Shown: one piece after another, positions 31,489 through 64,000 of the stretch | Layout of the letters: every line of letters begins with the position of its first letter | Position numbering within the stretch: position 1 is the first letter of the stretch | NCBI GenBank assembly: GCA_020632075.1 | Contig: JACKGH010000002.1 | Span: 11,454-75,453, forward strand | Origin: Candidatus Nomurabacteria bacterium | GTDB taxonomy: Bacteria > Patescibacteriota > Minisyncoccia > Phycocordibacterales > UBA918 | DNA length: 64,000 nucleotides | Direction: 5' to 3' | Notes under the pieces: model-generated | Seen by the model: the letters and a program-made list of their open reading frames with translations, nothing else | What the model was told of the DNA's origin: nothing | Databases searched by the model: none | Program-made: the position numbers and the translations under genes

Positions 31489-31522
31489 CACACCAAAAAA
31501 ACCCCCGAAGGGGTGTTTTTGT
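31489..31522. terminator. Bidirectional terminator
   Basis: aaaaaaACCCCcgaaGGGGTgtttttgt. Confidence 0.65.
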
Positions 31523-31915
31523 ACACATAAGCCGGATTCTGTCGAGCGAAGCTCGGATGATCATTTACCTAGGATGCTTGTTACCAAACACCTCTTGCGA
31601 CTCTCCTAGCACCACTTTTGCAACCACTGTATTGTAGACGCAAAAGTGGTGCTAGGCACGGTCTTGCACGCGAGTAAGGATTTAGCCGTTTCACTCACCT
31701 GGTCTCCCAAGTGACTATCCCCGAGGGGATCCCGTTCCTTTCAGTCAGGGCGTCTCTGCTCGCACCTCTCGGTCGGATCGCGGGCAAAATGAAGGACTCG
31801 TCCTTCATTTTGCCCGCGATCCGCCGCGACGGGTGTTACCCGCTACTCTGCTCCACAACGAGCTGTGGGCGTGTCCGGACTTTCCTCCTCACAAAGTGAG
31901 GCGATCATCGTGCGG
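31520..31915 (-). ncRNA. rnpB: RNase P RNA, bacterial type A
   Basis: The minus strand reads GAGGAGGAAAGTCCGGAC (P4 5' strand) ... GTGAAACGGC ... ACAGAATCCGGCTTATG (P4 3' strand). A short P3 hairpin CCTCACtttgTGAGG, and P2 as GATGATCG/TGATCATC. The ends are approximate. Confidence 0.75.
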
Positions 31916-31949
31916 AAATATTATGCAATAATACTTAAAAATAAGCAAC

Positions 31950-48266: not shown

Positions 48267-48971
48267 TCAAAAGAATCCTTCGGTATATATCTGATGCGCC
48301 GCAACACCCACCTCTTGCAGACTTTGCCACATCCCCTGCACAAACGATACTGAGCCGCAAACAAAGAATGACGCTACAGATAGATCAGCAACTTTCTCTG
48401 CTATCTGCTCACCATCCATGCGACCGGCATGTAGATCTGCATCGTCCACTGGTTCTTGAGTCACAAAATAGTACAGTGTGAAATCATCATGCTGTTTCGC
48501 GAGAGTTGCAAACCGCTCACGAAAGCTGATCTCACTAGCGGTGCGATTAGAGTAAAACAACTTGATCGGCCGTTGATCTTGCTGCTGTGTGAGCGAATCG
48601 ATAATACTTGCAGATGGCGTAATTCCGACTCCACCAGAAATAAATACCAGTTCTCCCTCATCTTCTGGCTCTGGATAGAAAAACCCATACGGAGCACTGG
48701 TGGTCACTGTCGCTCCAACCGGAAGATCTATGATCGCACTTGAGAAGGTGCCAATTTTCTTGATTGTGATCGTCACTTCGTCTGACTCTGGTGCACTTGA
48801 AAGACTATACGACTTCCCTTCTACCGGCGGATGCCCTGGCAACAGAATAGTCACATACTGCCCTGCTCGAAATGTTGGTTTTTCTACTACCGGCTCCAGG
48901 ACCATAGTTTTTACCGTCGGTGTCTCTGTGCGCCATTCAATTATTTTCCATTCGTACGTAGTCTCATTCAT
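48267..48971 (-). CDS. Ferredoxin-NADP+ reductase-like FAD/NAD(P)-binding oxidoreductase
   Basis: FAD motif RSYSLSS (FRAGQYVTILLPGH...), NAD motif ISGGVGITP, and a C-terminal CGS motif. Start refined to MNETTYEW, 8 nt overlapped with the iscU stop. Confidence 0.75.
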   Translation of the reverse strand: MNETTYEWKIIEWRTETPTVKTMVLEPVVEKPTFRAGQYVTILLPGHPPVEGKSYSLSSAPESDEVTITIKKIGTFSSAIIDLPVGATVTTSAPYGFFYPEPEDEGELVFISGGVGITPSASIIDSLTQQQDQRPIKLFYSNRTASEISFRERFATLAKQHDDFTLYYFVTQEPVDDADLHAGRMDGEQIAEKVADLSVASFFVCGSVSFVQGMWQSLQEVGVAAHQIYTEGFF

Positions 48972-49416
48972 GTTGTTGCTGTTCAAAATCTTCGATCGCT
49001 TCTCGAAGCGCCTGGTGACCAAGGACCGAACAATGATATTTCCGGTCCGGCAGACCACCGAGTCGATCTATGATCGCCTCTGGCGTGAGTCGTTTGGCGT
49101 GCCGGAGGAGCATACCACCGTTTTCAGTCGCCATAACTGACATCATGGAGGTTGAAGCGATCGCTGACGCACAACCAAACGTGCGCCACTTACACTCTGC
49201 TATCTTTGTCTTGGTCTGGTCCACCCTGATCCACACCACCATCATGTCGCCGCAGGCTGGACTACCCACGACCCCGACTCCATCTGATTCGTAGTCTTTT
49301 TCATCAAGCAATATGTTGCGCGGGTTAAAAAAGTGATCTTTGACCGTATCAGAATAGAGCCAGCTCGATCCAGCATCGCAAGTGGTGACATCGGGAGTTT
49401 TTGATTCTTTTTTCAT
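48964..49416 (-). CDS. iscU: Fe-S cluster assembly scaffold (IscU/NifU type)
   Basis: GSPACGD, FGCASAIAS and KYHCSVLG motifs. Confidence 0.9.
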   Translation of the reverse strand: MKKESKTPDVTTCDAGSSWLYSDTVKDHFFNPRNILLDEKDYESDGVGVVGSPACGDMMVVWIRVDQTKTKIAECKWRTFGCASAIASTSMMSVMATENGGMLLRHAKRLTPEAIIDRLGGLPDRKYHCSVLGHQALREAIEDFEQQQHE

Positions 49417-50618
49417 ACAGCAAATTCTATATGACTGGTCGTTGCCGCAGTGAGCTGACGTAAGCGATCAACACTTTTCTTAAGACACTGCACAGTGTAC
49501 TCAAGATCATCCTTTGTTGTCTCTCGGCCAAGCGTAAAGCGCAGACTACCATGAATGAGTCCATCTGGGATGCCAATCGCCTGAAGCACATGCGATGGCG
49601 TGAGATCGTGTGCCGAGCAAGCTGAGCCGGTCGCTGCCGCAATGCCGTAATGATCAAGTTCAAGGACGAGCGATTCTCCTTCAAGGGTCGGGACTGTAAT
49701 GTGGAGATTATTCGGAAGACGTACGTCTGGGTCTCCATTCATCACAATATCTGGCAGCACGGTATGAAGCTGATGCCAGAAGTGATTGCGGAGGTCGGTG
49801 AGGCGGGCGGCTTCAGCCGCCCGCCTCACGACCGCGAGCTCGAGTGCTTTCGCAAACCCAGCGATCAACGCCGCGTTCTCGGTACCAGCACGCAATCCCC
49901 CTTCCTGACCACCACCAACTATGAGCGGCTCGAGTCTCACTCCGCGCCGCACATACAGCATACCCAACCCTTTTGGACCATATATCTTCGCTCCGTTTAA
50001 AGTAAGCAAGTCGACACCTAGCTCGCGAGGTAACACTTCGAGCTGCCCGGCTGTCTGACAGGCATCAGTGTGAAAGAGCGGACGTTTCGCTTCATTGATC
50101 TGCCGCAATGCTTGAGCGATCTCAGCAATTGGTTGGATCGTACCGATCTCGTTGTTGGCGTACATGACCGATACCAGTGTCGTGTCTGGTCGCACAGCCG
50201 CCAGCACATCCCCAACCGACGCAATTCCGCTTGACTCCACCGGCACATACGTCACTGCAAACCCATCTCGCTCAAGCACCTTCGCTGCGGCTAAAACAGC
50301 TTTATGTTCGATCGCGGTGACCACAATGTGTTTCCCACGATCTTTCCGTGCTCGTGCTGCACCAAGAATCGCTAGATTGTCAGACTCAGTACCTGAACCA
50401 GTGAAAATGATCTCACTCGGCTCCACTGCCAAACTCGCTGCCACAGACTGCCGCGCTGCTGCCAGTGTGTCGTGTGCCTTACGTCCGATCTCGTACATCG
50501 AGGACGCATTGCCGTACGTCTCGCTCGTATGCTGCAGCAGCAGCGCGGCCACCTCTGGGTCAACCGGCGTCGCCGCAGCATGATCAAGGTATACTTTTCT
50601 CGTTTCGATCTGATTCAT
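49413..50618 (-). CDS. iscS: Cysteine desulfurase (class V aminotransferase, IscS/NifS)
   Basis: PLP-Lys region and the SGSACS active-site Cys loop. Its start overlaps the iscU stop. Confidence 0.9.
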   Translation of the reverse strand: MNQIETRKVYLDHAAATPVDPEVAALLLQHTSETYGNASSMYEIGRKAHDTLAAARQSVAASLAVEPSEIIFTGSGTESDNLAILGAARARKDRGKHIVVTAIEHKAVLAAAKVLERDGFAVTYVPVESSGIASVGDVLAAVRPDTTLVSVMYANNEIGTIQPIAEIAQALRQINEAKRPLFHTDACQTAGQLEVLPRELGVDLLTLNGAKIYGPKGLGMLYVRRGVRLEPLIVGGGQEGGLRAGTENAALIAGFAKALELAVVRRAAEAARLTDLRNHFWHQLHTVLPDIVMNGDPDVRLPNNLHITVPTLEGESLVLELDHYGIAAATGSACSAHDLTPSHVLQAIGIPDGLIHGSLRFTLGRETTKDDLEYTVQCLKKSVDRLRQLTAATTSHIEFAV

Positions 50619-50620
50619 AC

Positions 50621-51304
50621 TTATCTAATACCACAGTGCTGCACGTACTTGCTGGCGATTTTTTGCAGCTCCAAGAACTCTTCATTACTGTAGGTAGTCT
50701 TCCGCATAAAGGCAGGATTTAAGAGCTTTGTTGGTACAAACCGCTGCAAGTAGTAGTGCTCAGCGCCCTCGATCTCTTTTGCGATCTCTTCGATCTCTTC
50801 TGGCGACAGCAATGACTTAACCACCGTAGTACGAAACTCATATGGCACTCGACCCTCAAGCAGCAAAGCTCTGGTTTCCCGTATCGCGTCCACATCAACT
50901 GGCCTGGTCACAGTTGCGGAGTACTTAGAGAGCGGAGCCTTAGCATCAACCGCCACATAATCGACCATACCCTCGGCCACTGCAACAGTGACCACATCAG
51001 GCCGGGTGCCGTTCGTATCAAGCTTTACCTTGAACCCCATTGATTTGATCTGGAAGATAAAATCCAAGAGATCGTCATGCATGGTCGGTTCGCCACCAGT
51101 GATCGTTACTGCATCGAGCTTACCACGACGCTTCACCAAGAAATCGAAGAATGACTCAGTCGAGAGCTCGGTTGCAGTCTCCTCTACCAGCTCTGGATTG
51201 TGGCAGTACGGACAACGGAAATTACACCCGATCGTAAAGACGATAGCAGAGATGTGGTCTGGATAATCAATGATAGAACATTGTTGTAAGCCACCTAAGC
51301 GCAT
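50621..51304 (-). CDS. nrdG: Anaerobic ribonucleoside-triphosphate reductase activating protein (radical SAM)
   Basis: GCNFRCPYCHN radical-SAM CxxxCxxC motif. Confidence 0.9.
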   Translation of the reverse strand: MRLGGLQQCSIIDYPDHISAIVFTIGCNFRCPYCHNPELVEETATELSTESFFDFLVKRRGKLDAVTITGGEPTMHDDLLDFIFQIKSMGFKVKLDTNGTRPDVVTVAVAEGMVDYVAVDAKAPLSKYSATVTRPVDVDAIRETRALLLEGRVPYEFRTTVVKSLLSPEEIEEIAKEIEGAEHYYLQRFVPTKLLNPAFMRKTTYSNEEFLELQKIASKYVQHCGIR

Positions 51305-53451
51305 GATACATGCTCGGTCTTGGTTATAGCATCATGGTCTTTGGCGATGGTCTCTCGAAGCTCAAACTCTGCCTTTTTACCGTCATTCCACTGCTCAACT
51401 GGTCGCAAGTACCCGACGATCCGCGAGTACACCTCACACTGCTCATGACAATCTGGACACACCAGCACCTCGCCCGGCAAGTAGCCATGGTTCTTACATA
51501 CACTAAAGGTCGGCGATATGGTGAAGTACGGCAAGCGATACTGTTCGCAGATGCGCTTCACCAGACTCTTGATGGTGTTTGGATTATCAACCCGCTCTCC
51601 GAGGAAGAAGTGAATGACGGTACCACCCGTGTACTTAGTCTGTAGTTCATCTTGTAGTTCAAGGATCTCAAACGGATCGTCGCTATGCATGACCGGCAAG
51701 TGCGTGGAATTGGTGTAGAACGGAGCAACCACACTCTTACCGACCCCATTTGCAAACACCATGTCGTCACCAAGCTGCTTCTGATCGATCTTAGCCAAAC
51801 GGTACGAGGTTCCCTCTGCTGGAGTCGCTTCGAGGTTGTAGTTGTTGCCAGTTTCTTCCTGATAGTCAGCTAGACGATCACGCATGAAGTCGAGCACTTC
51901 CTCAGCAAAAGCCTGCCCTGCTTCAGTAGCAATTCCTTCTCCAAGCAGATTCTGCGCTGCCTCATTCATACCCACCAACCCAATGGTCGAGAAATGATTC
52001 TGCCAGTAGCAACCATTCATTTCGCGTAACGTAGCTAGATAGTGCTTAGTGTATGGATACAGATTCTTCTCAGTAAGCCCTTCAAGCACTTCACGTTTGA
52101 TCTCCAAACTAGTCTTCGCAATATCCATGAGTTCACCCAGTCGAGCAAGAAACTGCTTCTTGGTCTTTGCGTTGTAGGCAATGCGCGGCAGGTTCATGGT
52201 CACCACGCCGATCGAACCAGTGAGCGGATTGGCACCAAAGAGTCCACCACCGCGCTTCTGTAATTCGCGATTATCGATACGAAGCCTGCAACACATCGAA
52301 CGAGCGTCGTCAGGACTCATGTCAGAATTGATGAAGTTGGAGAAATACGGAATACCATACTTCGCCGCTGCCTCCCAGAGGTGAGTAATATGTTTGTTGT
52401 CCCAATCAAAGTCAGCGGTGATGTTATAGGTTGGAATTGGAAACGTAAAGACCCGTCCGGTTGCATCCCCCTCACACATCACCTCAAGAAAGGCTTGATT
52501 GAGCATGTCCATTTCGCGCTGGAAGGTGGCATAAGTTTCGTCAGTTGCTTGGCCGCCACGGATTACCTTCATGTTCTTGTAGTGTTCTGGCACCGTGAGG
52601 TCCATTGTGATGTTAGTGAATGGTGTCTGGAACCCGACACGGGTCGGCACATTTACATTGAAGACAAACTCCTGTAATGATTGCTTCACCTCTTCATACG
52701 AAAGGTGGTCGTACCAGATAAATGGCGCCAAGAGTGTATCGAAGTTTGAGAACGCCTGCGCTCCAGCTGCTTCACCCTGCATGGTGTAAAAGAAATTCAC
52801 GATCTGACCAAGCGCAGCGCGGAAGTGTTTTGGTGGCGCACTATGGAGCTTGCCCGGTACACCACCAAAGCCACGCTTCAGAAGATCATACAGATCCCAG
52901 CCGACACAGTAGACAGAGAGTAAGTTGAGGTCATGAAGATGAAAATCTCCGGCTCCGTGCGCGTCACGCACTTCAGCCGGGTAGATCTTATCAAGCCAGT
53001 AGGTGCGACTGATCTCAGACGCGACATGATTGTTGAGTCCTTGGAGCGAAAACTCCATATTGCTATTTTCCTTCACCGTCCAGTCTGACTTACCAAGATA
53101 ACTATCGACAAGATCGATCGTTTCAGTACTGACCATTCGGCGAATGTGCGCATGCTGCTCACGATACAAGATATATGCCTTGGCGGTCTTGAAGTACTCT
53201 AGTTCCATGAGCACACGCTCAACAATGTCCTGTACTCCTTCGACAGTTGGTATCGGATCAGTTGGGGTTGCGCTCGCGGTGATCTCTTTTACCGCTTGCT
53301 TCGTGGCCTTACTCAGGTCGCGCTTGTTAAATTCTCCGGTCGCCCGCATTGCTTTTTCAATGGCCCGCGAAATCTTGCGCTGGTCAAAGGCTTTTATTGA
53401 TCCATCTCGCTTAACAATGTGGGTGACGGCTGCAGTCACCTCTTTGCTCAT
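51295..53451 (-). CDS. nrdD: Anaerobic ribonucleoside-triphosphate reductase (class III)
   Basis: ATP-cone N-terminus, C-terminal CPDCH Zn ribbon and the glycyl-radical motif RIVGYLRPV. Confidence 0.95.
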   Translation of the reverse strand: MSKEVTAAVTHIVKRDGSIKAFDQRKISRAIEKAMRATGEFNKRDLSKATKQAVKEITASATPTDPIPTVEGVQDIVERVLMELEYFKTAKAYILYREQHAHIRRMVSTETIDLVDSYLGKSDWTVKENSNMEFSLQGLNNHVASEISRTYWLDKIYPAEVRDAHGAGDFHLHDLNLLSVYCVGWDLYDLLKRGFGGVPGKLHSAPPKHFRAALGQIVNFFYTMQGEAAGAQAFSNFDTLLAPFIWYDHLSYEEVKQSLQEFVFNVNVPTRVGFQTPFTNITMDLTVPEHYKNMKVIRGGQATDETYATFQREMDMLNQAFLEVMCEGDATGRVFTFPIPTYNITADFDWDNKHITHLWEAAAKYGIPYFSNFINSDMSPDDARSMCCRLRIDNRELQKRGGGLFGANPLTGSIGVVTMNLPRIAYNAKTKKQFLARLGELMDIAKTSLEIKREVLEGLTEKNLYPYTKHYLATLREMNGCYWQNHFSTIGLVGMNEAAQNLLGEGIATEAGQAFAEEVLDFMRDRLADYQEETGNNYNLEATPAEGTSYRLAKIDQKQLGDDMVFANGVGKSVVAPFYTNSTHLPVMHSDDPFEILELQDELQTKYTGGTVIHFFLGERVDNPNTIKSLVKRICEQYRLPYFTISPTFSVCKNHGYLPGEVLVCPDCHEQCEVYSRIVGYLRPVEQWNDGKKAEFELRETIAKDHDAITKTEHVSCA

Positions 53452-54442: not shown

Positions 54443-55387
54443 TTACCGCTCTACCCCGCAATCATCCCCCGAACACTGCCCTGCCACTTCGATCTCGATC
54501 GTTGCGTGTCCAACATGATACTCTCGCAAAATATTCGCCACCGCTTCACGCACACTACTTTGCTGCTCCATTCCCGCTGGTGTCACCACCACATGCCCCG
54601 TGAAGATATTATGCTCGCCATCAAGCGACCACACATGCACATCATGAACCGACTGCACTTCAGGCACAGCTGTAACACGCTCCAGCACTTGCTCAAGCGG
54701 CACATTGCTCGGTACTCCTTGCATCAGTAAATTCACCACTTCTCGCAGATTACGCAAAACATTCCACAAAATAAACACCGTGTATCCAATTGTCAGAAGT
54801 GGATCAACCAAATAAAAATCAGTAAAGTAAATAACGATTCCGGCAACTAGTACCGCCACCCAACCCAACACATCTTCGAGCATGTGCCACGAGAGCATCT
54901 TCTCATTTGCACTGTGTCCATGACTCAGCCTAAAATACGCCAGTGAGTTAACCAGTACTCCAAAAATCGCCACCCCGATCATTCCTGTCGCCATCACTTC
55001 TTCCGGCGCAAACAACCGCTGTACTGCTTCAATCAGAATAAAGACTGAACCAACGAGAAGTACCACCGCGGTAAACACAGCTGAAAAGAGTGATAGTCGA
55101 GCATATCCAAACGTACGCTTCTTGTCTGCCGGACGCTCAGCCTGCTTCTCTGCAAAGTACGCCGTGAACAGCGAAATGCTGTCACCCAGATCATGGAGCG
55201 CATCAGAGAGGATCGCGACACTGTTAGTCAACAAACCACCGATCAACTCAATGATCGTAAAGCCAATATTCAAAATACCCGCAAAGAGGACATTACCACT
55301 ACGCGATCCGTGATGGTGGTGATGACCATGCAATCCATGATGATGCACATGATCGTGATCATGGTCATGATGATGTTCGTGAGACAT
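54443..55387 (-). CDS. Cation diffusion facilitator (CzcD/ZitB-type) transporter with a His-rich N-terminus
   Basis: HEHHHDHDHDHVHHHGLHGHHHHHG tail, 6 transmembrane helices, and a C-terminal cytoplasmic domain. Confidence 0.9.
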   Translation of the reverse strand: MSHEHHHDHDHDHVHHHGLHGHHHHHGSRSGNVLFAGILNIGFTIIELIGGLLTNSVAILSDALHDLGDSISLFTAYFAEKQAERPADKKRTFGYARLSLFSAVFTAVVLLVGSVFILIEAVQRLFAPEEVMATGMIGVAIFGVLVNSLAYFRLSHGHSANEKMLSWHMLEDVLGWVAVLVAGIVIYFTDFYLVDPLLTIGYTVFILWNVLRNLREVVNLLMQGVPSNVPLEQVLERVTAVPEVQSVHDVHVWSLDGEHNIFTGHVVVTPAGMEQQSSVREAVANILREYHVGHATIEIEVAGQCSGDDCGVER

Positions 55388-55589
55388 AACAAGAAGACAC
55401 TTATAGTTATTAATTACTTCTGGAGATGCGCACCAGGCGCCTTAATCACTTTTGATAGTAACATCCACCTGTAAAACAGTCCACTTATTTACTCATCAAG
55501 ATGCACTCCAACTATACATTACGTCTCTTTTGACTTTACCCTCTGATTGATCTACGATGCGAAGAGAGGCAAAACTCACGGAGGGTCAC

Positions 55590-56785: not shown

Positions 56786-58372
56786 CTATCGATTCAAACT
56801 TTCAAGAATTAAGATGATCTCTTCCTCTCGAAGTGGAACCCACGGTGAGTTGTCAGGGTTTGAGGCAGCTGCTGCTGGACTCTGTCCCTGATTCCACCAC
56901 TTAGCGTAGTAGGCAGCACCTTCAAAGAGCACTCGGTCACCCGCATCATAAATGCGCATACCAGACCAGGTCGGATACGTTCCAGCTGGAAGGGTCGGTC
57001 GCTCTACCGGACGATCAGTCGCTAGAACTGGACCGATCAGCATCCATGGTGTCTCCCAGGCCTGTAGCACTGGGTTATCTGGTAGATCATTCTTGGTCCA
57101 CCACTTTGCTTCATACACATTGCCGTGCCACACCACCTTTGTCCCCTTGAGATAGGTTCCGGTCTCTTTCCAGATCTGATACGGACTCGTTTCTGGATCA
57201 TCTTCCACATGCACATTGGTGCGCGGATCTTCGACCGTCAGCATCTTTGCATTCTGCATCAGGTCACCGTCGAAGCCAGCGCCAAGAGCAAGTGAAAACG
57301 CATACGGTGACGCCGTCACGCCACTACAACGATCAGACACCACTTTCACATCAACATAGTTCTCTCCACACGGAATGTCACGATTGGCAGACCATATCGA
57401 CATGCGGCCAACCCCCTGCTCAAGCGCAAACGTATTAAAAGAAACAGCATCTTCGAGAGTGAAGACCTCACCGAGCACATCATTCTGACCGATCATCGGA
57501 GTCGCTCCGAGCTTCTGCCAGACCGTTGCACCATCTTGATACGTCCCGGATTGTTCATACAAAATACCGAGCTGGCGGTGAGTTTCAATGAGTGCCTTGC
57601 GAGACGCTTCATACATTGAATCATTCTCGTCTCGACTACCACCATAGTCCATCGTCATTACGTTCACTCCAGCAATATCTACTCCACCTGCGAGCATGAG
57701 TGCCACCGCGTCAGTACCAGCAGTGGTCAAACCTTGTGGCGCAACCGGCAGGGTCAGCCAGATCGCCAAGTCCTTTTCAGCAGCCCGATACTCTTGCTGC
57801 AGCTGAGCGATCGCTGCAGCACGTCGTTTTGCCGCCTCGAGATCGGTCAACCCCTCGTTTTCAAGATCAAGATCGATCGTATTCACACTGTACCGCTCGA
57901 TCACAGCACGGTATGCATCAGCTAGTGCAGCTTCATCGAGACATTTGAGGGCTAGTTCGGAATTAAGCGCCCCTCCAAACGAGACAGCGATCCGACCACC
58001 GCGCTGCTGAAAACGAGCAATACGTCGATCAAGATCAAGCGAAACCGCTGCTTCATCTAAGGTGTAGTACCCTCCCCAAGTCGGCACACACGGATCATCA
58101 TGGGAAGACACGATGAATGACAAGACCGCATCTGAAGACTCCATACCACCGCGCTGTTCAAAGTCATAGGTTGGCAGTGAGGTGACATCAACATAACCCG
58201 CAAACCACGGAAGATGATCTTCATTTAGCACTTCTTCCTGCCACTTAGCAAAACTCTGGGTTGTACCATATCCAACACCACCAATGATCGCCAAGACAAT
58301 AGCGAGTCGCACGATCGACAATCGCTTTCGGGTCTGTGTCTGTACTACTGAAGCTCCTCCTTCCATATGCAA
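56786..58372 (-). CDS. GH18-like (chitinase-fold) protein with two C-terminal CBM5/12 chitin-binding modules
   Basis: Signal anchor. TIM-barrel cues (FAGYVDV, VSFGGA, NTIDLDLENEG as a DxDxE-like catalytic motif, MTMDYG). Two W...G..Y.A.WW.....P modules (WHGNVYEAKWWTKNDLPDNP and LFEGAAYYAKWWNQGQSP). Confidence 0.65.
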   Translation of the reverse strand: MHMEGGASVVQTQTRKRLSIVRLAIVLAIIGGVGYGTTQSFAKWQEEVLNEDHLPWFAGYVDVTSLPTYDFEQRGGMESSDAVLSFIVSSHDDPCVPTWGGYYTLDEAAVSLDLDRRIARFQQRGGRIAVSFGGALNSELALKCLDEAALADAYRAVIERYSVNTIDLDLENEGLTDLEAAKRRAAAIAQLQQEYRAAEKDLAIWLTLPVAPQGLTTAGTDAVALMLAGGVDIAGVNVMTMDYGGSRDENDSMYEASRKALIETHRQLGILYEQSGTYQDGATVWQKLGATPMIGQNDVLGEVFTLEDAVSFNTFALEQGVGRMSIWSANRDIPCGENYVDVKVVSDRCSGVTASPYAFSLALGAGFDGDLMQNAKMLTVEDPRTNVHVEDDPETSPYQIWKETGTYLKGTKVVWHGNVYEAKWWTKNDLPDNPVLQAWETPWMLIGPVLATDRPVERPTLPAGTYPTWSGMRIYDAGDRVLFEGAAYYAKWWNQGQSPAAAASNPDNSPWVPLREEEIILILESLNR

Positions 58373-58373
58373 A

Positions 58374-60644
58374 TTAATTACCCTCGCTTACTAACCCTCG
58401 CTTCATGCCAAATCGAGGCCAATTCCAAGAACGCTTCTTGGTCGGTGTTACCGGCACTTCGACATATAGTACATCAACTAGTGCCAACCAAAGATCGACG
58501 ATCATATTCTTGACCCCAATATACGCAACGATCGCCCACATAGCCGCAAACGCATTGAAACCAGCGAACGCAGCATTGCCCCAGTTCTGCCCCTCAATGT
58601 TACGCCACAAGGTAAAGAGTGAAAAGATGACGATCGCCAATGGTGCAATGAGATAGAGCCAATTGGTCGCAGTGCGATTCTTCACTTTTGGTGTACGGGC
58701 AAATGGGATCTTTTTGGTAGTGATCGCTTGCTGCAACGACTTCAGTGTACCTGCGATGTTGACCGGAAGCAGAATGAGATTGAAACCGTAGATACGGAAG
58801 ATGTCAGTGTAATTATAGCGACAGTACTTGAGATCCATCGACATTGCAATGAAGTACGGTGCAGCAGCCAACAACACTAACGGACTCAACAGTCGTCCAT
58901 CGTATGGGTACGCCAAAAGAAAAACGAGACCAGCGCTCGACCAAGCGATCGATACCATGTAGTTGGTGCGGATCAAGAACTCAAGCTTCGACATCGGCCG
59001 ACCTTCGTGCTTACGCTTATGACGCAGCTTTAAAAGTTTCGGAAAGATAAGTAACCCACCATTTGCCCACCGCAATCGCTGTACCACCAAAGAGCCGAAG
59101 TCGGGCGGCGTCGCGCTATAACTCAGACGCTCCGGATAATTAACCAGCCGCCAGTCATGGAGTGCCATGTCAATACTCGACTCAGTATCTTCGATCACGG
59201 TGTGGTCTTGGACATAGCGCTTCACTTCAAACCCACCGACAAATTCTGTCTCAACAATATCCTCAAGCGCTCGCTTGCGGATCACTGCATTAGCGCCCAC
59301 CCAAAAGGTTGCCCCGTAGTGACTCATCCCCTGATGAATGATGTGTTGGATATCAGTGGTCGCGCCCGACAGTCGCTCAAGGCGAGATGGTGCACCTCGG
59401 AACGATGAGTATGGAGTCTGTACCACTGCTACATCGGCATTGTTTGGCTGTTCAAGGAAATGTACCAACCGAGCACAGTATCCACGAAGCAATACCGAGT
59501 CAGCATCCAATGTCAAAATGAAATCAGTATCCCTGATCACGAGATCGGCTTCGTCTGCTTTATTGGTCTTCATCAGGATCGTTCCTTCTGCGGTCTGTTC
59601 TTTGTGGTACATACCGCCCATGAGACCAATATACGCATTGAGGTTCATCGCCTTGTTTCGCTCGTGTGAGAGTGAGATGTATCGCTTACGCTCAAAGAGA
59701 CTCACCTTGGCCTGGAAGATCCAGACGAGTCGGTTACACAATTGCTCTACACGACTCTTCGTAAACTGCACACCACCATCACGCAACGCCAGCTGTTCTC
59801 GCCCGGCAGCGCGAAGCTCCCCAGCAAGTTCACACAAGACCTGGTCCGCAAAGAACATGTCTACATGATCTTCGATCACTTCGATCTTAGCTGTATGCTC
59901 TAACCAATCTGCGGTCCATTCATACTGCGCCACAATGCGCTCGATGGCTTTCTTGTCTCCTTTGAAATTCGTCTTCTCTAACTCAGTTCGAAGTGCCATT
60001 GCAGCAGCGAGCGGTTCAGACAAGAGCGCTTCGATCTCAGCACCAAGCTGCAATGTCTGCTCGATGCGCTCTTTGTGCTCTGGTCGTACACGAAACGGCT
60101 CATCGTCAAGCAGTAGTACGACATTGAGATCTGGATGTTCCTGGAGTGCCGCTGAAAGCAAGGTCTTTCTGATCACCTGCACCTCTTCACTATACGAAGG
60201 CACAAGCACAGTGATCGATGAACGATGCGTCGCAAAGTGTTCGTCCAGTACGCGCTGTGGTGCACGCATATGTTTTTTAAAACTCTGGAGCGCACCTTGT
60301 CGGGTGATGAGATAGATAAGTGCGGACAATGTAAGAAAGGTCACGATCGTCGAATAACCCACCACTTCGGCCGTGAACTGGTAATCCTGCGGGCCATCAA
60401 TGAGCTGACGGATGATCACATCGGTAATGTACATAAGCCAAAACACGATCGTCAGCACAATGGCAATGCGGCTGTACGCAATCACAAAATTCGTCGGCTT
60501 GTCGTGCATATATGAAAGTGGCACCACGTTCTTCTCCGAACCCCACTGACGCTTAAACGAACACCGTTCAAGGCTCTTTCCTTTACTCTTTTTCTTACTG
60601 CGAAACATGTTCATAATTTGTATTTCCACCACCACATTAAGCAA
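58374..60644 (-). CDS. Family-2 processive beta-glycosyltransferase (cellulose/chitin/hyaluronan-synthase-like)
   Basis: Transmembrane helices on both sides of a cytoplasmic GT-A domain containing LLLDDEP, LTLDADS, TEDTESS and QRLRWANGG (the D, DxD, TED, QxxRW set). Confidence 0.8.
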   Translation of the reverse strand: MLNVVVEIQIMNMFRSKKKSKGKSLERCSFKRQWGSEKNVVPLSYMHDKPTNFVIAYSRIAIVLTIVFWLMYITDVIIRQLIDGPQDYQFTAEVVGYSTIVTFLTLSALIYLITRQGALQSFKKHMRAPQRVLDEHFATHRSSITVLVPSYSEEVQVIRKTLLSAALQEHPDLNVVLLLDDEPFRVRPEHKERIEQTLQLGAEIEALLSEPLAAAMALRTELEKTNFKGDKKAIERIVAQYEWTADWLEHTAKIEVIEDHVDMFFADQVLCELAGELRAAGREQLALRDGGVQFTKSRVEQLCNRLVWIFQAKVSLFERKRYISLSHERNKAMNLNAYIGLMGGMYHKEQTAEGTILMKTNKADEADLVIRDTDFILTLDADSVLLRGYCARLVHFLEQPNNADVAVVQTPYSSFRGAPSRLERLSGATTDIQHIIHQGMSHYGATFWVGANAVIRKRALEDIVETEFVGGFEVKRYVQDHTVIEDTESSIDMALHDWRLVNYPERLSYSATPPDFGSLVVQRLRWANGGLLIFPKLLKLRHKRKHEGRPMSKLEFLIRTNYMVSIAWSSAGLVFLLAYPYDGRLLSPLVLLAAAPYFIAMSMDLKYCRYNYTDIFRIYGFNLILLPVNIAGTLKSLQQAITTKKIPFARTPKVKNRTATNWLYLIAPLAIVIFSLFTLWRNIEGQNWGNAAFAGFNAFAAMWAIVAYIGVKNMIVDLWLALVDVLYVEVPVTPTKKRSWNWPRFGMKRGLVSEGN

Positions 60645-60745
60645 AACCGCACCGTATCAAAGTGATACAAAAGTGCGGTGTTCTTGGTGTTAATTTATAA
60701 CATTATGTGCAGTTTTGTCAAACTCTTTAGGGTATAGGCTTGATC

Positions 60746-62464
60746 CTATCCAAAGGTGAATGTATACGCTCTAAATCCAGGCTCTACCTTCAATCTCAAC
60801 TCATGCGTGCCATACTCATCACTAGTGTAAATGTGATACATGCGTTCCTCTGACACCATCAACTTCTCCTCTGCCACATCAGCTCCAGCTTGATCGAGTG
60901 AGATCGGTTGGCCATCAAGGTACACTTCAGCAACATTCTCCAAACCAGACCCAAGGACCATGTAGACATTTTTCGCGGTAAAGGTGTATACCAATTCCCC
61001 AGCACTTCGTGTCTCGGCATACTCCGAAGTAATGTTCCAGGTACCATCAAGATACAACTGGTCAGCGGAAAAGGTGGTAGGTAACGAAAGTGTCTGCACA
61101 CCGCCCTCGTGTTTCGTACCATTTCCGAGATACTCATTGCGCTTAGAACCAAAGTACACCTCAGGACTGCCAACCGACGCAAAATCGACAGCTGTGACAC
61201 CGACCACGCCACCCACTGTCTGTGCTGAAGTTTTACCGAGCTGGGCCAGAGCAGCTTGAATTTCTGCTTCAGTCTCGTCGTAAGCACCCTCACCAATGTG
61301 GTCGTAGATGATCTGTCCCTTCTCGTTGATCAAGTATTTTCGCGGCCAAAACTTATTCCCAAACGCCCGCCAGGTCGAGTAGTCATTATCAAGCACCACG
61401 GGGTACTTGATCCCAAAATCAGCGATTGCTTGCTCTACGTTGCTGGTCTGTTGTTCAAATGCAAACTCCGGTGTATGCACCCCAACGATCTCCAAACCCT
61501 GATCGTGATACCGTTCATACCAAGTATTCAAGTATGGCAGCGTGCGACGACAGTTGATACAGCTGTACGTCCAAAAATCTACCAGTACGATCTTTTCGCC
61601 TTGAAATTGCTCTAGAGTAATTGGTTCATTACTGGTATTTAGATACGCACTGATGCCAGCAAGCTCTGGGGCCTGTGGCCCGGTCGGTGCATCCGCGCTA
61701 TCTTTCAGCGCACCGACCGGGCCCATATCGTCAGGCATGTCGGTTTTCTCGAGCAATCGTTGCTCGATCTTGGTCACATCAAAGAAACCTGAATCCAAGA
61801 TCGCTGTCTCCAGCTGTTTATCGAGACCAGAGATGATCGCAAAGCCAACCAACGCGATCAGTACACCCATCCCGCGCTTTACCCAACCGCGCGGATCAGC
61901 TGCGCCAGAGAGACGACCAACCAACTTCTGCCCAAGGAGCGCGATCAAGACCAGCACCAGCGCCAAGCCTAGTGTGTACGAGAACAAGTACACCATCCCG
62001 AGTGCAAACGACGACGGCAGTACAGTCGCCAAGATCACAAAGTATGTAGGAGAGCAGGTTGAGAACACCGGTCCAAGCGCCGCTCCCATAATGACATCAC
62101 CCCACACACTATTTTGCTTACTACCTTTGTTCAACAGCACTTGTGATCGACTGTTGAGAATGGCGTTGAATTTAAGACCTTCCCACAGCGAGGGAAAGAT
62201 CAACACAATTCCAAGCACCAACAAAATACCGCCAGAAAACCATTTCCAGAATGCAGGTGGAATGTCGATCACGAGCGTCGTCGCCTTAAGTAGCAAAGTA
62301 AAGACGATCACCGACAACGCCAGTGAAGCGGTGATAATGTACGGCTTCCACCGATTACCGTGATCGGTCGCTGAGCCACCGATCACAACCGGCAAAAGCG
62401 GTAAAATGCAAGGCGCCAAGACAGTGAGTGCGCCAGCGATAAATGAGATAAGTAGTAACGTCAT
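60746..62464 (-). CDS. CcdA/DsbD-family disulfide-reductant membrane transporter fused to a thioredoxin-like (TlpA/ResA-type) domain and a C-terminal extracytoplasmic domain
   Basis: N-terminal 6-transmembrane domain with CILPLLP and Cys-containing helices. Redoxin domain with the WTYSCINC CxxC motif. Confidence 0.8.
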   Translation of the reverse strand: MTLLLISFIAGALTVLAPCILPLLPVVIGGSATDHGNRWKPYIITASLALSVIVFTLLLKATTLVIDIPPAFWKWFSGGILLVLGIVLIFPSLWEGLKFNAILNSRSQVLLNKGSKQNSVWGDVIMGAALGPVFSTCSPTYFVILATVLPSSFALGMVYLFSYTLGLALVLVLIALLGQKLVGRLSGAADPRGWVKRGMGVLIALVGFAIISGLDKQLETAILDSGFFDVTKIEQRLLEKTDMPDDMGPVGALKDSADAPTGPQAPELAGISAYLNTSNEPITLEQFQGEKIVLVDFWTYSCINCRRTLPYLNTWYERYHDQGLEIVGVHTPEFAFEQQTSNVEQAIADFGIKYPVVLDNDYSTWRAFGNKFWPRKYLINEKGQIIYDHIGEGAYDETEAEIQAALAQLGKTSAQTVGGVVGVTAVDFASVGSPEVYFGSKRNEYLGNGTKHEGGVQTLSLPTTFSADQLYLDGTWNITSEYAETRSAGELVYTFTAKNVYMVLGSGLENVAEVYLDGQPISLDQAGADVAEEKLMVSEERMYHIYTSDEYGTHELRLKVEPGFRAYTFTFG

Positions 62465-62467
62465 AAG

Positions 62468-63061
62468 CTAAATGGTCTGACTCGCCACTGCTGCAGCGCT
62501 GGCGCTACCGGTCCACTTCTTCAGCAGATTGCCATTAGCATCAACTTGAACAAACGTATGCTGCACCGTCACACCGTATTTCTTCTTGAGTTCAGTCTGT
62601 GTATCAAAATCAAGCTTGAGGATCGCCAACCCATCAGGAACACCCGTTGACCTGATACTCGCATCTGCTGCACGACAGGTCGGGCACCACGAAGCATGGA
62701 AGAATAGCACTACATCACCGCTGTTTGCGAGCGCGAGTTTATCTGCCGTGTACGCCTCATACGTACCATGCAAAACGTTGCTGTCCGCTTCCATCATCGC
62801 ATCAGCACCCTCCATCATTACTCCTGCCTCTTCCATCATCGCACCAGATTCCTCCATCATGACACCGTCTGGTACACCGGGTTCTTCTTGCATCATCATT
62901 GCTCCTTCCGCCTCTTCACTCTCTTCCATCATCGCGCTCTCGCTCATAGTAGCTTCCATACTTTCATCAGTGTCCTGAAGCAACCACCAACCGCCAATAC
63001 CCGCCACGACCAGCACCGCCACGATGATCAACATTGTTTTATTGTTTTGATTGTTTTCCAT
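62468..63061 (-). CDS. Membrane-anchored thioredoxin-like protein with a Met/Glu-rich (MMEE)n linker
   Basis: Transmembrane anchor. Tract MSESAMMEESEEAEGAMMMQEE...MMEESGAMMEEAGVMMEGADAMMEAD. C-terminal thioredoxin fold with WCPTC. Confidence 0.7.
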   Translation of the reverse strand: MENNQNNKTMLIIVAVLVVAGIGGWWLLQDTDESMEATMSESAMMEESEEAEGAMMMQEEPGVPDGVMMEESGAMMEEAGVMMEGADAMMEADSNVLHGTYEAYTADKLALANSGDVVLFFHASWCPTCRAADASIRSTGVPDGLAILKLDFDTQTELKKKYGVTVQHTFVQVDANGNLLKKWTGSASAAAVASQTI

Positions 63062-63086
63062 ATATTTATTTTTACTCTTGACTCAC

Positions 63087-64000
63087 CTACTCAGTAAATA
63101 AGTAGAGATAGTCTTGATAACCCTCCCTCGTCATTTCAGTCTGCGACACAAAACGTAGCGCGCCGGAATTGATGCAATAACGCTTCCCACCATGTTCTGT
63201 CGGACCATCGTTGAAAATATGTCCGAGGTGACCTCCCCCACTCCGAACCTCGGTCCGTACTAATCCATAAGTTGTATCCGGCAATTCTGAGACCGGCGCA
63301 CCCGTGATGGTCTGATAGAAGCTCGGCCAGCCAGTTCCGGAATCATATTTGTTGGTTGAGGAAAACAGCGGATCACCCGTCACCACATCGACATAAATGC
63401 CCGCCTCATGATTGTCCCAGTACGCATTCTTAAATGCCGGTTCAGTGCCATTTTCAGCAACAATATGATAGGCGCTAGCATCGAGGGCTTTTTGCAAAAC
63501 AACGATCTCTTCCGCAGTGTAGGTCTGAGGCGTCCACACAGTTGTATCTGTACTACTTGTTTCTAGGGAGTCAGTCACATCCATCCCCTCCTCACTCAAA
63601 AAGTACAGCGCCGCATCCTTAGCCCATGTCTCTTCCACAAAGCCAGCACGACCCGAAGCTCTCTTATATCGTTGATAATGATCAGCGGCCTTTTTGTAAT
63701 AATCCTGATGATACTCTTCTGCTTTAAAGAAAGTCGTAAAAGGAAGGATCTCAGTGACGATCGGTTTATCAAATAGACCACTAGTACCAAGACGCTGCTT
63801 AGAATCCTCAGCGATCTGCCGCTCAGTGTCATTACTGTAAAAGATGGCAGTACGATACTGTGAACCGCGATCTGCGAACTGACCACCATCGTCGGTCGGG
63901 TCGATGTGGCCCCAATACACATCCAAGATCTCTTTGAACGAAATACGAACCGGATCAAATGTCACTTGCACCGCTTCTCGGTGACCAGTCTTACCCCGCG
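63087..64000 (-). CDS. msrAB: Bifunctional methionine sulfoxide reductase MsrA-MsrB fusion, 5' partial: the N-terminus lies beyond the window end
   Basis: The MsrA part continues past 64000 (...TGHREAVQVTFDPVRISFKEILDVYWGHIDPT). The MsrB part has GIYVDVVTGDPLFSS, GWPSF, and HLGHIFNDGP...RYCINS. Confidence 0.85.
   Translation of the reverse strand, partial: RGKTGHREAVQVTFDPVRISFKEILDVYWGHIDPTDDGGQFADRGSQYRTAIFYSNDTERQIAEDSKQRLGTSGLFDKPIVTEILPFTTFFKAEEYHQDYYKKAADHYQRYKRASGRAGFVEETWAKDAALYFLSEEGMDVTDSLETSSTDTTVWTPQTYTAEEIVVLQKALDASAYHIVAENGTEPAFKNAYWDNHEAGIYVDVVTGDPLFSSTNKYDSGTGWPSFYQTITGAPVSELPDTTYGLVRTEVRSGGGHLGHIFNDGPTEHGGKRYCINSGALRFVSQTEMTREGYQDYLYLFTE

Follow-up and report, generated by a model that had tools for sequence, protein, structure and literature searches.

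The stretch of DNA analysed here (hereafter the window, 64,000 nucleotides of contig JACKGH010000002.1 from a Candidatus Nomurabacteria bacterium) ends in three genes that encode a fused methionine sulfoxide reductase MsrA-MsrB (MsrAB), a membrane-anchored thioredoxin (Trx) with a methionine-rich tether, and a DipZ-like protein in which a CcdA-type membrane domain is joined to a TlpA-like and a Thioredoxin_10 domain. All three are co-oriented on the minus strand, and the intergenic gaps of just 25 nt (msrAB/trx) and 3 nt (trx/dipZ-like) suggest that they probably form one operon. This agrees with the initial annotation of this DNA, which had placed a CcdA-TlpA fusion, an anchored thioredoxin and an MsrA-MsrB in one codirectional array. 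A separate promoter-like site (60721..60692) is found only past the dipZ-like gene, ahead of genes for a glycosyltransferase family 2 (GT2) protein and a glycoside hydrolase family 18 (GH18) protein, so that we take the module to consist of the msrAB, trx and dipZ-like genes (Table 1). Hydropathy analysis finds hydrophobic anchors in all three proteins, and the positive-inside rule predicts that MsrAB, the thioredoxin domain and the C-terminal domains of the DipZ-like protein all lie outside the membrane. The exact same thioredoxin is encoded on nine public contigs.

Table 1. Coordinates, in the window, of the three genes and of the features within them.
Feature	Position	Strand	Basis
msrAB (3' 303 codons, cut by the window end)	63087..>64000	-	Pfam PMSR 7e-39 and SelR 3e-41
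trx, 197 aa (transmembrane anchor, Met-rich tether, Trx domain)	62468..63061	-	Open reading frame; Pfam Thioredoxin 1.1e-07
Signal-anchor helix of thioredoxin, residues ~6-30	62972..63046	-	Kyte-Doolittle segment 6-30, score 2.53; AlphaFold2 helix 7-30
Met-rich acidic tether of thioredoxin, residues 30-98	62768..62974	-	Composition, motif counts, predicted disorder
21-nt tandem repeat (3.4 copies, 70% matches), encoding [AV]MMEExG heptads	62790..62860		Tandem Repeats Finder
CPTC of the WCPTC redox motif (Cys126, Cys129)	62675..62686	-	Sequence
dipZ-like gene, 572 aa	60746..62464	-	Pfam; match to DipZ in the PDB
CcdA/DsbD-type transmembrane domain, residues 1-225, Cys19 (APCILP) and Cys137 (STCSPT)	61790..62464	-	Pfam DsbD_TM, hydropathy
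TlpA/ResA-like thioredoxin domain, residues ~263-410, C302-I-N-C305	61235..61678	-	Pfam Redoxin 1.1e-16, AhpC-TSA 2e-13
Thioredoxin_10 domain, residues 433-572	60749..61168	-	Pfam PF17991 1.1e-29, full model length

The methionine-rich thioredoxin and its partner proteins

The tether that joins the anchor to the Trx domain has 15 methionines in 69 residues (21.7%), together with 21 Asp/Glu, a single His, and no Lys, Arg or Cys, while the 99-residue Trx domain of the same protein has no methionine at all. Against a background of 2.0% Met, taken from 22 long open reading frames (ORFs) of the window, the binomial probability of such an enrichment is 7e-12, or ~9e-07 when corrected for all six-frame windows, and the initial annotation was right in reporting a Met-rich tract of ~70 residues. 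Its label for the tract, '(MMEE)n', is fair shorthand in that there are seven MM doublets and five MME. The tract has one MxM and no MxxM motif, contrary to the copper suggestion of that annotation. A six-frame scan of the window found no comparable Met-rich tract in any other genuine gene. The one other match is a spurious antisense ORF (55097-55471, plus strand) that lies over the His-rich stretch of a CDF-family cation efflux protein (54443-55387, minus strand), where that stretch is located near the N-terminus.

The Trx domain itself looks conventional. W125, C126, P127 and C129 are invariant in a 35-sequence alignment of the thioredoxin, and Cys126 and Cys129 are its sole cysteines. In the AlphaFold2 model, which used the same number of aligned sequences, residues 7-30 form a helix and residues 100-197 form a Trx fold with predicted local distance difference test (pLDDT) scores above 90. 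Foldseek returns classical thioredoxins as the top PDB matches of this fold, at a TM-score on target of ~0.7. Residues 31-96 have pLDDT scores below 50 and no secondary structure, and the tether is predicted to be disordered. From Lys8 ahead of the helix and the acidic residues behind it, we infer by the positive-inside rule that the protein is oriented N-in/C-out.

The composition of the tether is retained among relatives, whose tethers vary in both sequence and length. Our whole-protein search gave 2,218 clusters, of which the top 120 were inspected, and nearly all of the single-domain matches among them have 9-19% Met ahead of the CxxC motif. Across 120 relatives, the tether is 16.9% Met and 38% charged, compared with 21.7% and 30% in the window, and its residues include 16.5% Glu, 10.7% Asp, 10.3% Lys, 0.3% His and 0.2% Cys. 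The methionines occur as MM doublets (516 cases) set 5-7 residues apart. Spacings of 2-4 residues are depleted, strongly so for MxM (3), MxxM (1) and i+4 (49) among ~1,270 consecutive Met spacings, and this would fit exposed, soluble doublets better than the hydrophobic face of a helix. An amphipathic helix or coiled coil, suggested by the 7-residue periodicity of the doublets, was rejected on the AlphaFold2 model described above and on the depletion of i+3 and i+4 spacings.

Met-dense tracts are almost exclusive to this thioredoxin. In ~1 Mb of related DNA, 58 ORFs reach a density of 8 or more Met per 40 residues, and 54 of these encode the Met-rich thioredoxin; two multicopper oxidases and one DM13-domain protein are among the others. 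Searching with the tract alone gave five candidates in a 5.8-billion-protein database, none of them significant, and no meaningful match in NCBIfam, so that homology to MrpX or to other Met-rich families is neither shown nor excluded. None of the curated NCBIfam or Pfam models sets the Met-rich thioredoxin apart as a family.

The protein encoded directly downstream combines the three domains of DipZ, with a CxxC motif in its TlpA-like domain. The initial annotation had correctly seen a CcdA domain and a TlpA domain in it and had overlooked the full DipZ architecture, with Thioredoxin_10 (1e-29) at the C-terminus. The CcdA domain has about six hydrophobic segments, and Cys19 and Cys137 each lie within one; its Pfam DsbD_TM match (7e-06, 25.9 bits) is slightly below the cut-off of 27.1 bits. 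Residues 263-531 match Mycobacterium tuberculosis DipZ (PDB: 2hyx/5cyy) with E = 1.5e-54. PDB matches of the TlpA-like domain include DipZ, ResA and, at E = 1.5e-07, pneumococcal Etrx2 (PDB: 2yp6, 4hqz; PMC3914529), and the domain also matches the Trx part of the NCBIfam model PRK14018 (1e-07). Apart from Cys19, Cys137 and the CINC pair, the protein has no cysteine, and its Thioredoxin_10 domain is Cys-free. SOQ1 shares the TlpA-like domain, and according to a preprint, its methionine sulfoxide reductase (Msr) activity needs a Cys pair in the C-terminal domain (bioRxiv 10.1101/2024.11.01.621559). That the DipZ-like protein could itself be a methionine sulfoxide reductase, as its likeness to SOQ1 might suggest, was rejected because of the Cys-free Thioredoxin_10 domain.

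The msrAB frame is open to the edge of the window, and its product, besides the Pfam matches in Table 1, matches the NCBIfam bifunctional MsrA/MsrB model (2.7e-72). The N-terminus, which lies beyond the window, is found on a related contig (L002:1147-2538) that encodes a full MsrAB of 463 aa whose C-terminal 303 aa are identical to the window fragment. This full-length product starts MKIGNKGSVTIIVLAVLALATLGAGAYMV, and its lone hydrophobic segment spans residues 3-31. The initial annotation had called for an inspection of this N-terminus; hydropathy shows an anchor there, which argues for predicted export and against a cytoplasmic MsrAB. All cysteines of the full-length product are confined to the GCFWC and RYCIN motifs, and the linker between the anchor and GCFWC is acidic and ~90 residues long, with just 5 Met in 89 residues. 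The same contig, which reaches past the window end, carries a tRNA-Gln(ttg) gene (L002:781-854, plus strand) ~290 nt upstream of msrAB.

On the other side of the module, positions 56786-60644 (minus strand), directly 3' of the dipZ-like gene, encode a 756-aa GT2 glycosyltransferase (Glyco_trans_2_3) and a GH18 protein of 528 aa that carries CBM5/12 domains. This order is kept on related contigs L001-L005; the shorter L006 stops within the GH18 gene.

Distribution and gene neighbourhood in Patescibacteria

As the whole-protein search could be biased by Met-rich words, we scanned species-representative genomes with patterns drawn from the Trx domain only. The scan gave at least 562 matching stretches, of which 80 loci were kept, and these are the basis of all counts out of 80 given below. 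By name or by obvious context, all 80 loci are from metagenome-assembled genomes of Patescibacteria, including Kaiserbacteria, Paceibacteria, Parcubacteria, Saccharibacteria, Moranbacteria and others; the nearest relatives, at 57-62% identity, are from Kaiserbacteria and Paceibacterota. The tether averages 17-18% Met in these loci and has at least five methionines in 76 of the 80. The tract is therefore no peculiarity of one genome, and the comparison with orthologous thioredoxins that the initial annotation had recommended, in case the tract should be absent from all of them, found it in most relatives. A domain-only HMMER search of 1.84 billion representatives at 50% identity returned 2,475 relatives at E <= 1e-10. 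Among the single-domain representatives, of which 94 were counted, a density of 6 or more Met per 40 residues is reached by 55, and one of 8 or more by 37. The Met-rich tether is thus common in Patescibacteria, yet not universal.

Some relatives have two Trx domains. They begin with a lipoprotein signal peptide (LLASC), and the Met-rich stretch forms their interdomain linker, so that the signal peptide would place both the Trx domain and the linker outside the cell. One such lipoprotein (P0011; L088 and L089, 6001-6972) has three in-frame TGA codons where relatives have Gly, which points to a lineage using genetic code 25 (Gracilibacteria/Absconditabacteria type); in the database protein, TGA had been read as Trp. 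In another (P0003, L087:6001-6816), the interdomain linker is acidic and has no Met; its gene is followed by those for CcdA, a TlpA-like protein and MsrAB, and an OmpR-type response regulator is encoded upstream. Two of the two-domain lipoprotein relatives, one of them using code 25, adjoin CcdA, a TlpA-like protein and MsrAB.

The most constant neighbour of the thioredoxin is CcdA, whose gene lies immediately downstream in 78/80 loci. In ~52 loci, CcdA is fused to, or trailed by, TlpA-like and Thioredoxin_10 domains as in the window. In another 23, it is fused directly to MsrA-MsrB to give a protein of ~600 aa (e.g. L019:8548-10356, L014, L023, L026, L028, L030), and this fusion occupies the slot that CcdA-TlpA-Thioredoxin_10 takes elsewhere. 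The Met-rich thioredoxin is the lone Trx module of these 23 loci, and we argue from this that it would relay electrons from CcdA to Msr. In nine of them, a separate msrB and/or msrA gene then follows, in all cases encoding a protein without a membrane anchor.

An Msr gene of some kind is present in 36/80 loci (45%), compared with the few percent that we would estimate for a random 16-kb window of a ~1-Mb genome with a few msr genes. Msr is nonetheless not the constant companion of the Met-rich thioredoxin; that role falls to CcdA. Of the Met-free relatives P0165, P0192, P0207 and P0234, the one on an informatively long contig (P0207) is followed by a DipZ-like gene and has no Msr within 5 kb.

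Directly upstream of the thioredoxin, 62/80 loci have a gene for an XRE-type helix-turn-helix protein together with one for a membrane protein of ~120 aa (e.g. L034:7150-7524). With four hydrophobic segments and the motif NPFHFWMPDMM, the latter matches no Pfam or NCBIfam family. The pair may act as regulator or sensor of the module. It is absent from the window by tblastn, where msrAB takes its place, as it does in the closest relatives (L007, L008). A relative with a Met-free linker (P0165, L090:693-980) has an ArsR-type (HTH_5) regulator upstream in lieu of the XRE pair.

Met-rich segments are also found in a few other proteins of these loci. Two multicopper oxidases encoded a few kb from the thioredoxin (L007:463-2139, plus strand; L011:693-2249, minus strand) carry Met-rich inserts with MM doublets plus Gly, His and Asn. 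A protein with a transmembrane (TM) anchor and a DM13 ('electron transfer') domain also has a Met-rich linker, and an MsrA-TM-DM13 fusion is encoded downstream of a CcdA-MsrAB gene (L040:5196-5741, L026:11056-12063).

Possible roles of the tether

We propose that, on the outward-facing side of the cytoplasmic membrane, the operon serves both to repair and to scavenge methionine oxidation, by way of a relay from CcdA through Trx to MsrAB that carries a tethered methionine sink. For this proposal as a whole, we regard the chances as about even. Its two parts differ in strength: the relay is very probable on the domains, anchors and gene order described above, while the recycling of the tether by Msr is plausible, at slightly below an even chance.

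We infer the following direction of electron flow. Cytoplasmic thioredoxin would reduce the two CcdA-domain cysteines that lie within the membrane, and CcdA would then hand electrons outward, both to its own fused TlpA-like domain and to the membrane-anchored WCPTC thioredoxin. Both Trx-fold modules would regenerate the anchored MsrA-MsrB, allowing both methionine sulfoxide epimers to be reduced. The tether would be a built-in counterpart of MrpX, a sacrificial peptide of the periplasm: H2O2, HOCl or chloramines would react with its methionines before reaching the CxxC thiols or other surface proteins, and MsrAB next to it would reduce the resulting sulfoxides, drawing on electrons supplied by the same thioredoxin polypeptide. 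In this way, cytoplasmic reducing power could drive catalytic removal of oxidants at the cell surface.

Several observations weigh against this proposal. About 40% of the 50%-identity representatives have linkers of Ser, Thr, Pro and Glu with few or no methionines, so that the methionines of the tether are dispensable for the core function of the thioredoxin. No Msr is encoded within ~8 kb in 44/80 loci, and 30 of the 36 separate Msr ORFs have no anchor, which makes a cytoplasmic location probable for most separate Msr enzymes; just ~29/80 loci (~36%) have an Msr with predicted export. The Met content of the tether is 17.1% in loci with an Msr gene and 17.7% in those without, and Met-poor tethers also adjoin CcdA-MsrAB fusions (L080, L084). 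A membrane-tethered chain with ~15 Met offers little capacity in the absence of high abundance and rapid recycling. Finally, pneumococcal Etrx proteins resemble the TlpA-like domain and are unlike the classical, Met-rich Trx, so that the reductant of MsrAB may be either of the two Trx modules. Since the constant partner is CcdA, and the tether is as rich in Met where Msr is lacking nearby as where it is present, we propose rather than assert a sacrificial sponge recycled by MsrAB.

The simplest alternative is that the tether is a mere flexible spacer that lets Trx reach CcdA and clients in the wall, its Met-richness being lineage-specific low complexity that arose by repeat expansion. The predicted disorder would suit a spacer, as would the 21-nt tandem repeat inside the tether, its highly variable length and sequence, the Met-poor linkers at the same position in ~40% of the representatives, and the independence of Met content from an Msr neighbourhood. 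Low complexity is harder to reconcile with methionine, an amino acid with a single codon and a background of 2%, being kept at ~17% across hundreds of divergent, unalignable tethers. The enrichment, moreover, is almost confined to this protein (54 of the 58 Met-dense ORFs), as the linkers of MsrAB and of the DipZ-like protein are not Met-rich, and the regular, charge-flanked MM doublets suggest selection on a pattern over drift. We consider the spacer unlikely.

Alternatively, the tether could be a docking or regulatory element, in which oxidized methionines act as pseudo-substrates that recruit MsrAB, or as a switch of the tether's conformation that redirects electrons, or in which the chain shields the CxxC motif from over-oxidation. 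Oxidation of methionine as a switch has a precedent in SOQ1/LCNP (bioRxiv 10.1101/2024.11.01.621559), and both the fusion of the tether in cis to the reductant of Msr and the low capacity of ~15 Met per molecule as a sink would be in line with such a role. Recruitment seems needless in the 23 loci in which MsrAB is already fused to CcdA beside Trx in the membrane, and the tether has no conserved motif beyond its composition. Although sequence data cannot separate docking from the sink, we regard a docking or regulatory role as improbable.

It is very improbable that the tether binds Cu(I) or Ag(I) through thioethers in the manner of CueO, CopA/PcoA, CusF or Ctr1, buffering copper near the CxxC motif or delivering it to a partner: Met-only Cu(I) sites do exist (Ctr1, CusF), thioredoxin-fold systems such as Scs are tied to copper tolerance, the Met-rich inserts of the two multicopper oxidases have MM doublets, and the CDF metal exporter is encoded ~7 kb away in the window, but the MxxM-type motifs to which the initial annotation had appealed are missing from the window tract, which has one MxM and one His, MxM or MxxM accounts for just 4 of the ~1,270 Met spacings in the 120 relatives, His and Cys are scarce in their linkers, copper enzymes lie nearby in just 2/80 loci (the two multicopper oxidases), no copper family is among the conserved neighbour clusters of the 80 loci, and the neighbours and fusion partners that do recur are Msr enzymes.

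Taken further, the recyclable methionine sink would define an undescribed class of Patescibacteria surface thioredoxins, in which the disordered MM-doublet tether works as a catalytic antioxidant brush that is continuously re-reduced by a CcdA-fed MsrAB, its variable Met content marks exposure to oxygen, and the XRE pair senses oxidants. This extension is tentative, and we give it clearly less than an even chance. If it is true, oxidants from the environment or from a host would attack the tether, which would thereby give these ultra-small and mostly anaerobic epibionts an extracellular shield that recharges itself. The window encodes an anaerobic ribonucleotide reductase, NrdD (51295-53451), and its radical-SAM activase, NrdG (50621-51304), and the organism therefore has oxygen-sensitive machinery, a point in favour of the repair and scavenging proposed above; the region is consistent with an anaerobic lifestyle. 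The same minus-strand region (48267-53451) encodes, after NrdD/NrdG, an IscS-like class-V aminotransferase, a NifU_N scaffold and an FAD/NAD-binding oxidoreductase. Elsewhere in the window (31512-31920, minus strand) is a class A bacterial RNase P RNA, whose score of 101.5 bits is barely over the Rfam gathering threshold of 100.

A handful of pathogens are known to repair methionine outside the cytoplasm, and a streamlined version of such repair is widespread in the candidate phyla radiation (CPR), among bacteria whose tiny genomes retain few accessory functions. A recyclable sink fused to its own reductant would, if true, be the first case in which the principle of 'methionines as catalytic antioxidants' is realised within an electron-transfer protein, and it would help to explain how oxygen-sensitive epibionts survive under oxic conditions or in association with a host. 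Comparative ecology could use the Met content of the tether as a trait readable from sequence, and the recurrent CcdA-MsrAB fusions provide independent evidence on which thioredoxin serves the exported Msr.

Comparison with known systems

Relays from CcdA through Trx to MsrAB have been shown experimentally in Streptococcus pneumoniae (PMC3914529) and Fusobacterium nucleatum (PMC9239216), and trx-ccdA-msrAB loci are also found in Streptococcus gordonii (PMC7034828) and F. nucleatum (PMC9239216). The pneumococcal surface system consists of CcdA1/2, Etrx1/2 and MsrAB2 (PMC3914529), and the likeness to it that the initial annotation had pointed out is borne out by the match to the ccdA-etrx-msrAB2 arrangement. 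In both, the genes for CcdA, an exported (here by prediction) Trx-fold protein and a membrane-anchored MsrA-MsrB fusion sit together, there are two Trx modules per MsrAB, and the cell is (here by prediction) without an outer membrane. The features of the Etrx system that are present here are a CcdA with one Cys in each of two TM segments, a CxxC Trx and an MsrAB with catalytic cysteines that are both predicted to be exported, and clustered, co-oriented genes. Unlike the pneumococcal system, the window CcdA is fused to a TlpA-like module and Thioredoxin_10, and in place of a TlpA/ResA-like lipoprotein there is a classical Trx (PF00085) with a TM-helix anchor and a ~70-residue tether of ~22% Met. 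The papers that we searched on pneumococcal-type systems do not describe a Met-rich tether on the Trx partner; nor did a literature search that left out most subscription journals, and hence does not prove absence, find any description of a Met-rich thioredoxin tether.

The closest parallel to the tether is MrpX, a periplasmic peptide of the MrpX-YedY(MsrP)Z system of Azospira suillum that scavenges hypochlorite and is 20% Met and 44% charged (PMC4436054). The molybdoenzyme MsrP, supplied with electrons by MsrQ, recycles MrpX (PMC4436054). Like MrpX, the tether is a highly charged polypeptide of ~20% Met, predicted here to be exported, that in the window (though in a minority of the 80 loci) is encoded beside a predicted extracytoplasmic Msr, with a dedicated (here putative) regulator in most family members, and by analogy, the proposed logic is the same: sacrificial oxidation of methionine followed by enzymatic recycling. 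MrpX, however, is soluble and free in the periplasm of a diderm. The Met-rich chain here is covalently part of a thioredoxin, and the linked reductase is the thiol-based MsrAB, which would receive its electrons via CcdA, rather than MsrP. The tether may work like MrpX, but it is outside the MrpX family.

Two further systems share parts of the architecture. M. tuberculosis DipZ (Rv2874) shows the same series, in which a CcdA-like membrane domain is followed by a TlpA-like thioredoxin domain and, at the C-terminus, by Thioredoxin_10. It is from another phylum, and unlike it, the gene described here is always preceded by a dedicated gene for a Met-rich thioredoxin and is often linked to msr. Neisseria PilB/MsrAB, which is served by DsbD, likewise pairs an extracytoplasmic MsrA-MsrB with a dedicated TlpA/DsbE-like Trx module, and by sequence, both the PilB Trx domain and pneumococcal Etrx2 resemble the TlpA-like domain fused to CcdA and not the classical, Met-rich Trx. 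In PilB, however, Trx is fused to MsrAB, while in the family described here it is CcdA that is fused, to either TlpA or MsrAB, and the Trx with the Met-rich tether remains separate. Seen against these systems, an extracytoplasmic Trx/CcdA/Msr module across the CPR is in itself expected; the MrpX-like, disordered, Met-rich tether is its new and widespread element.

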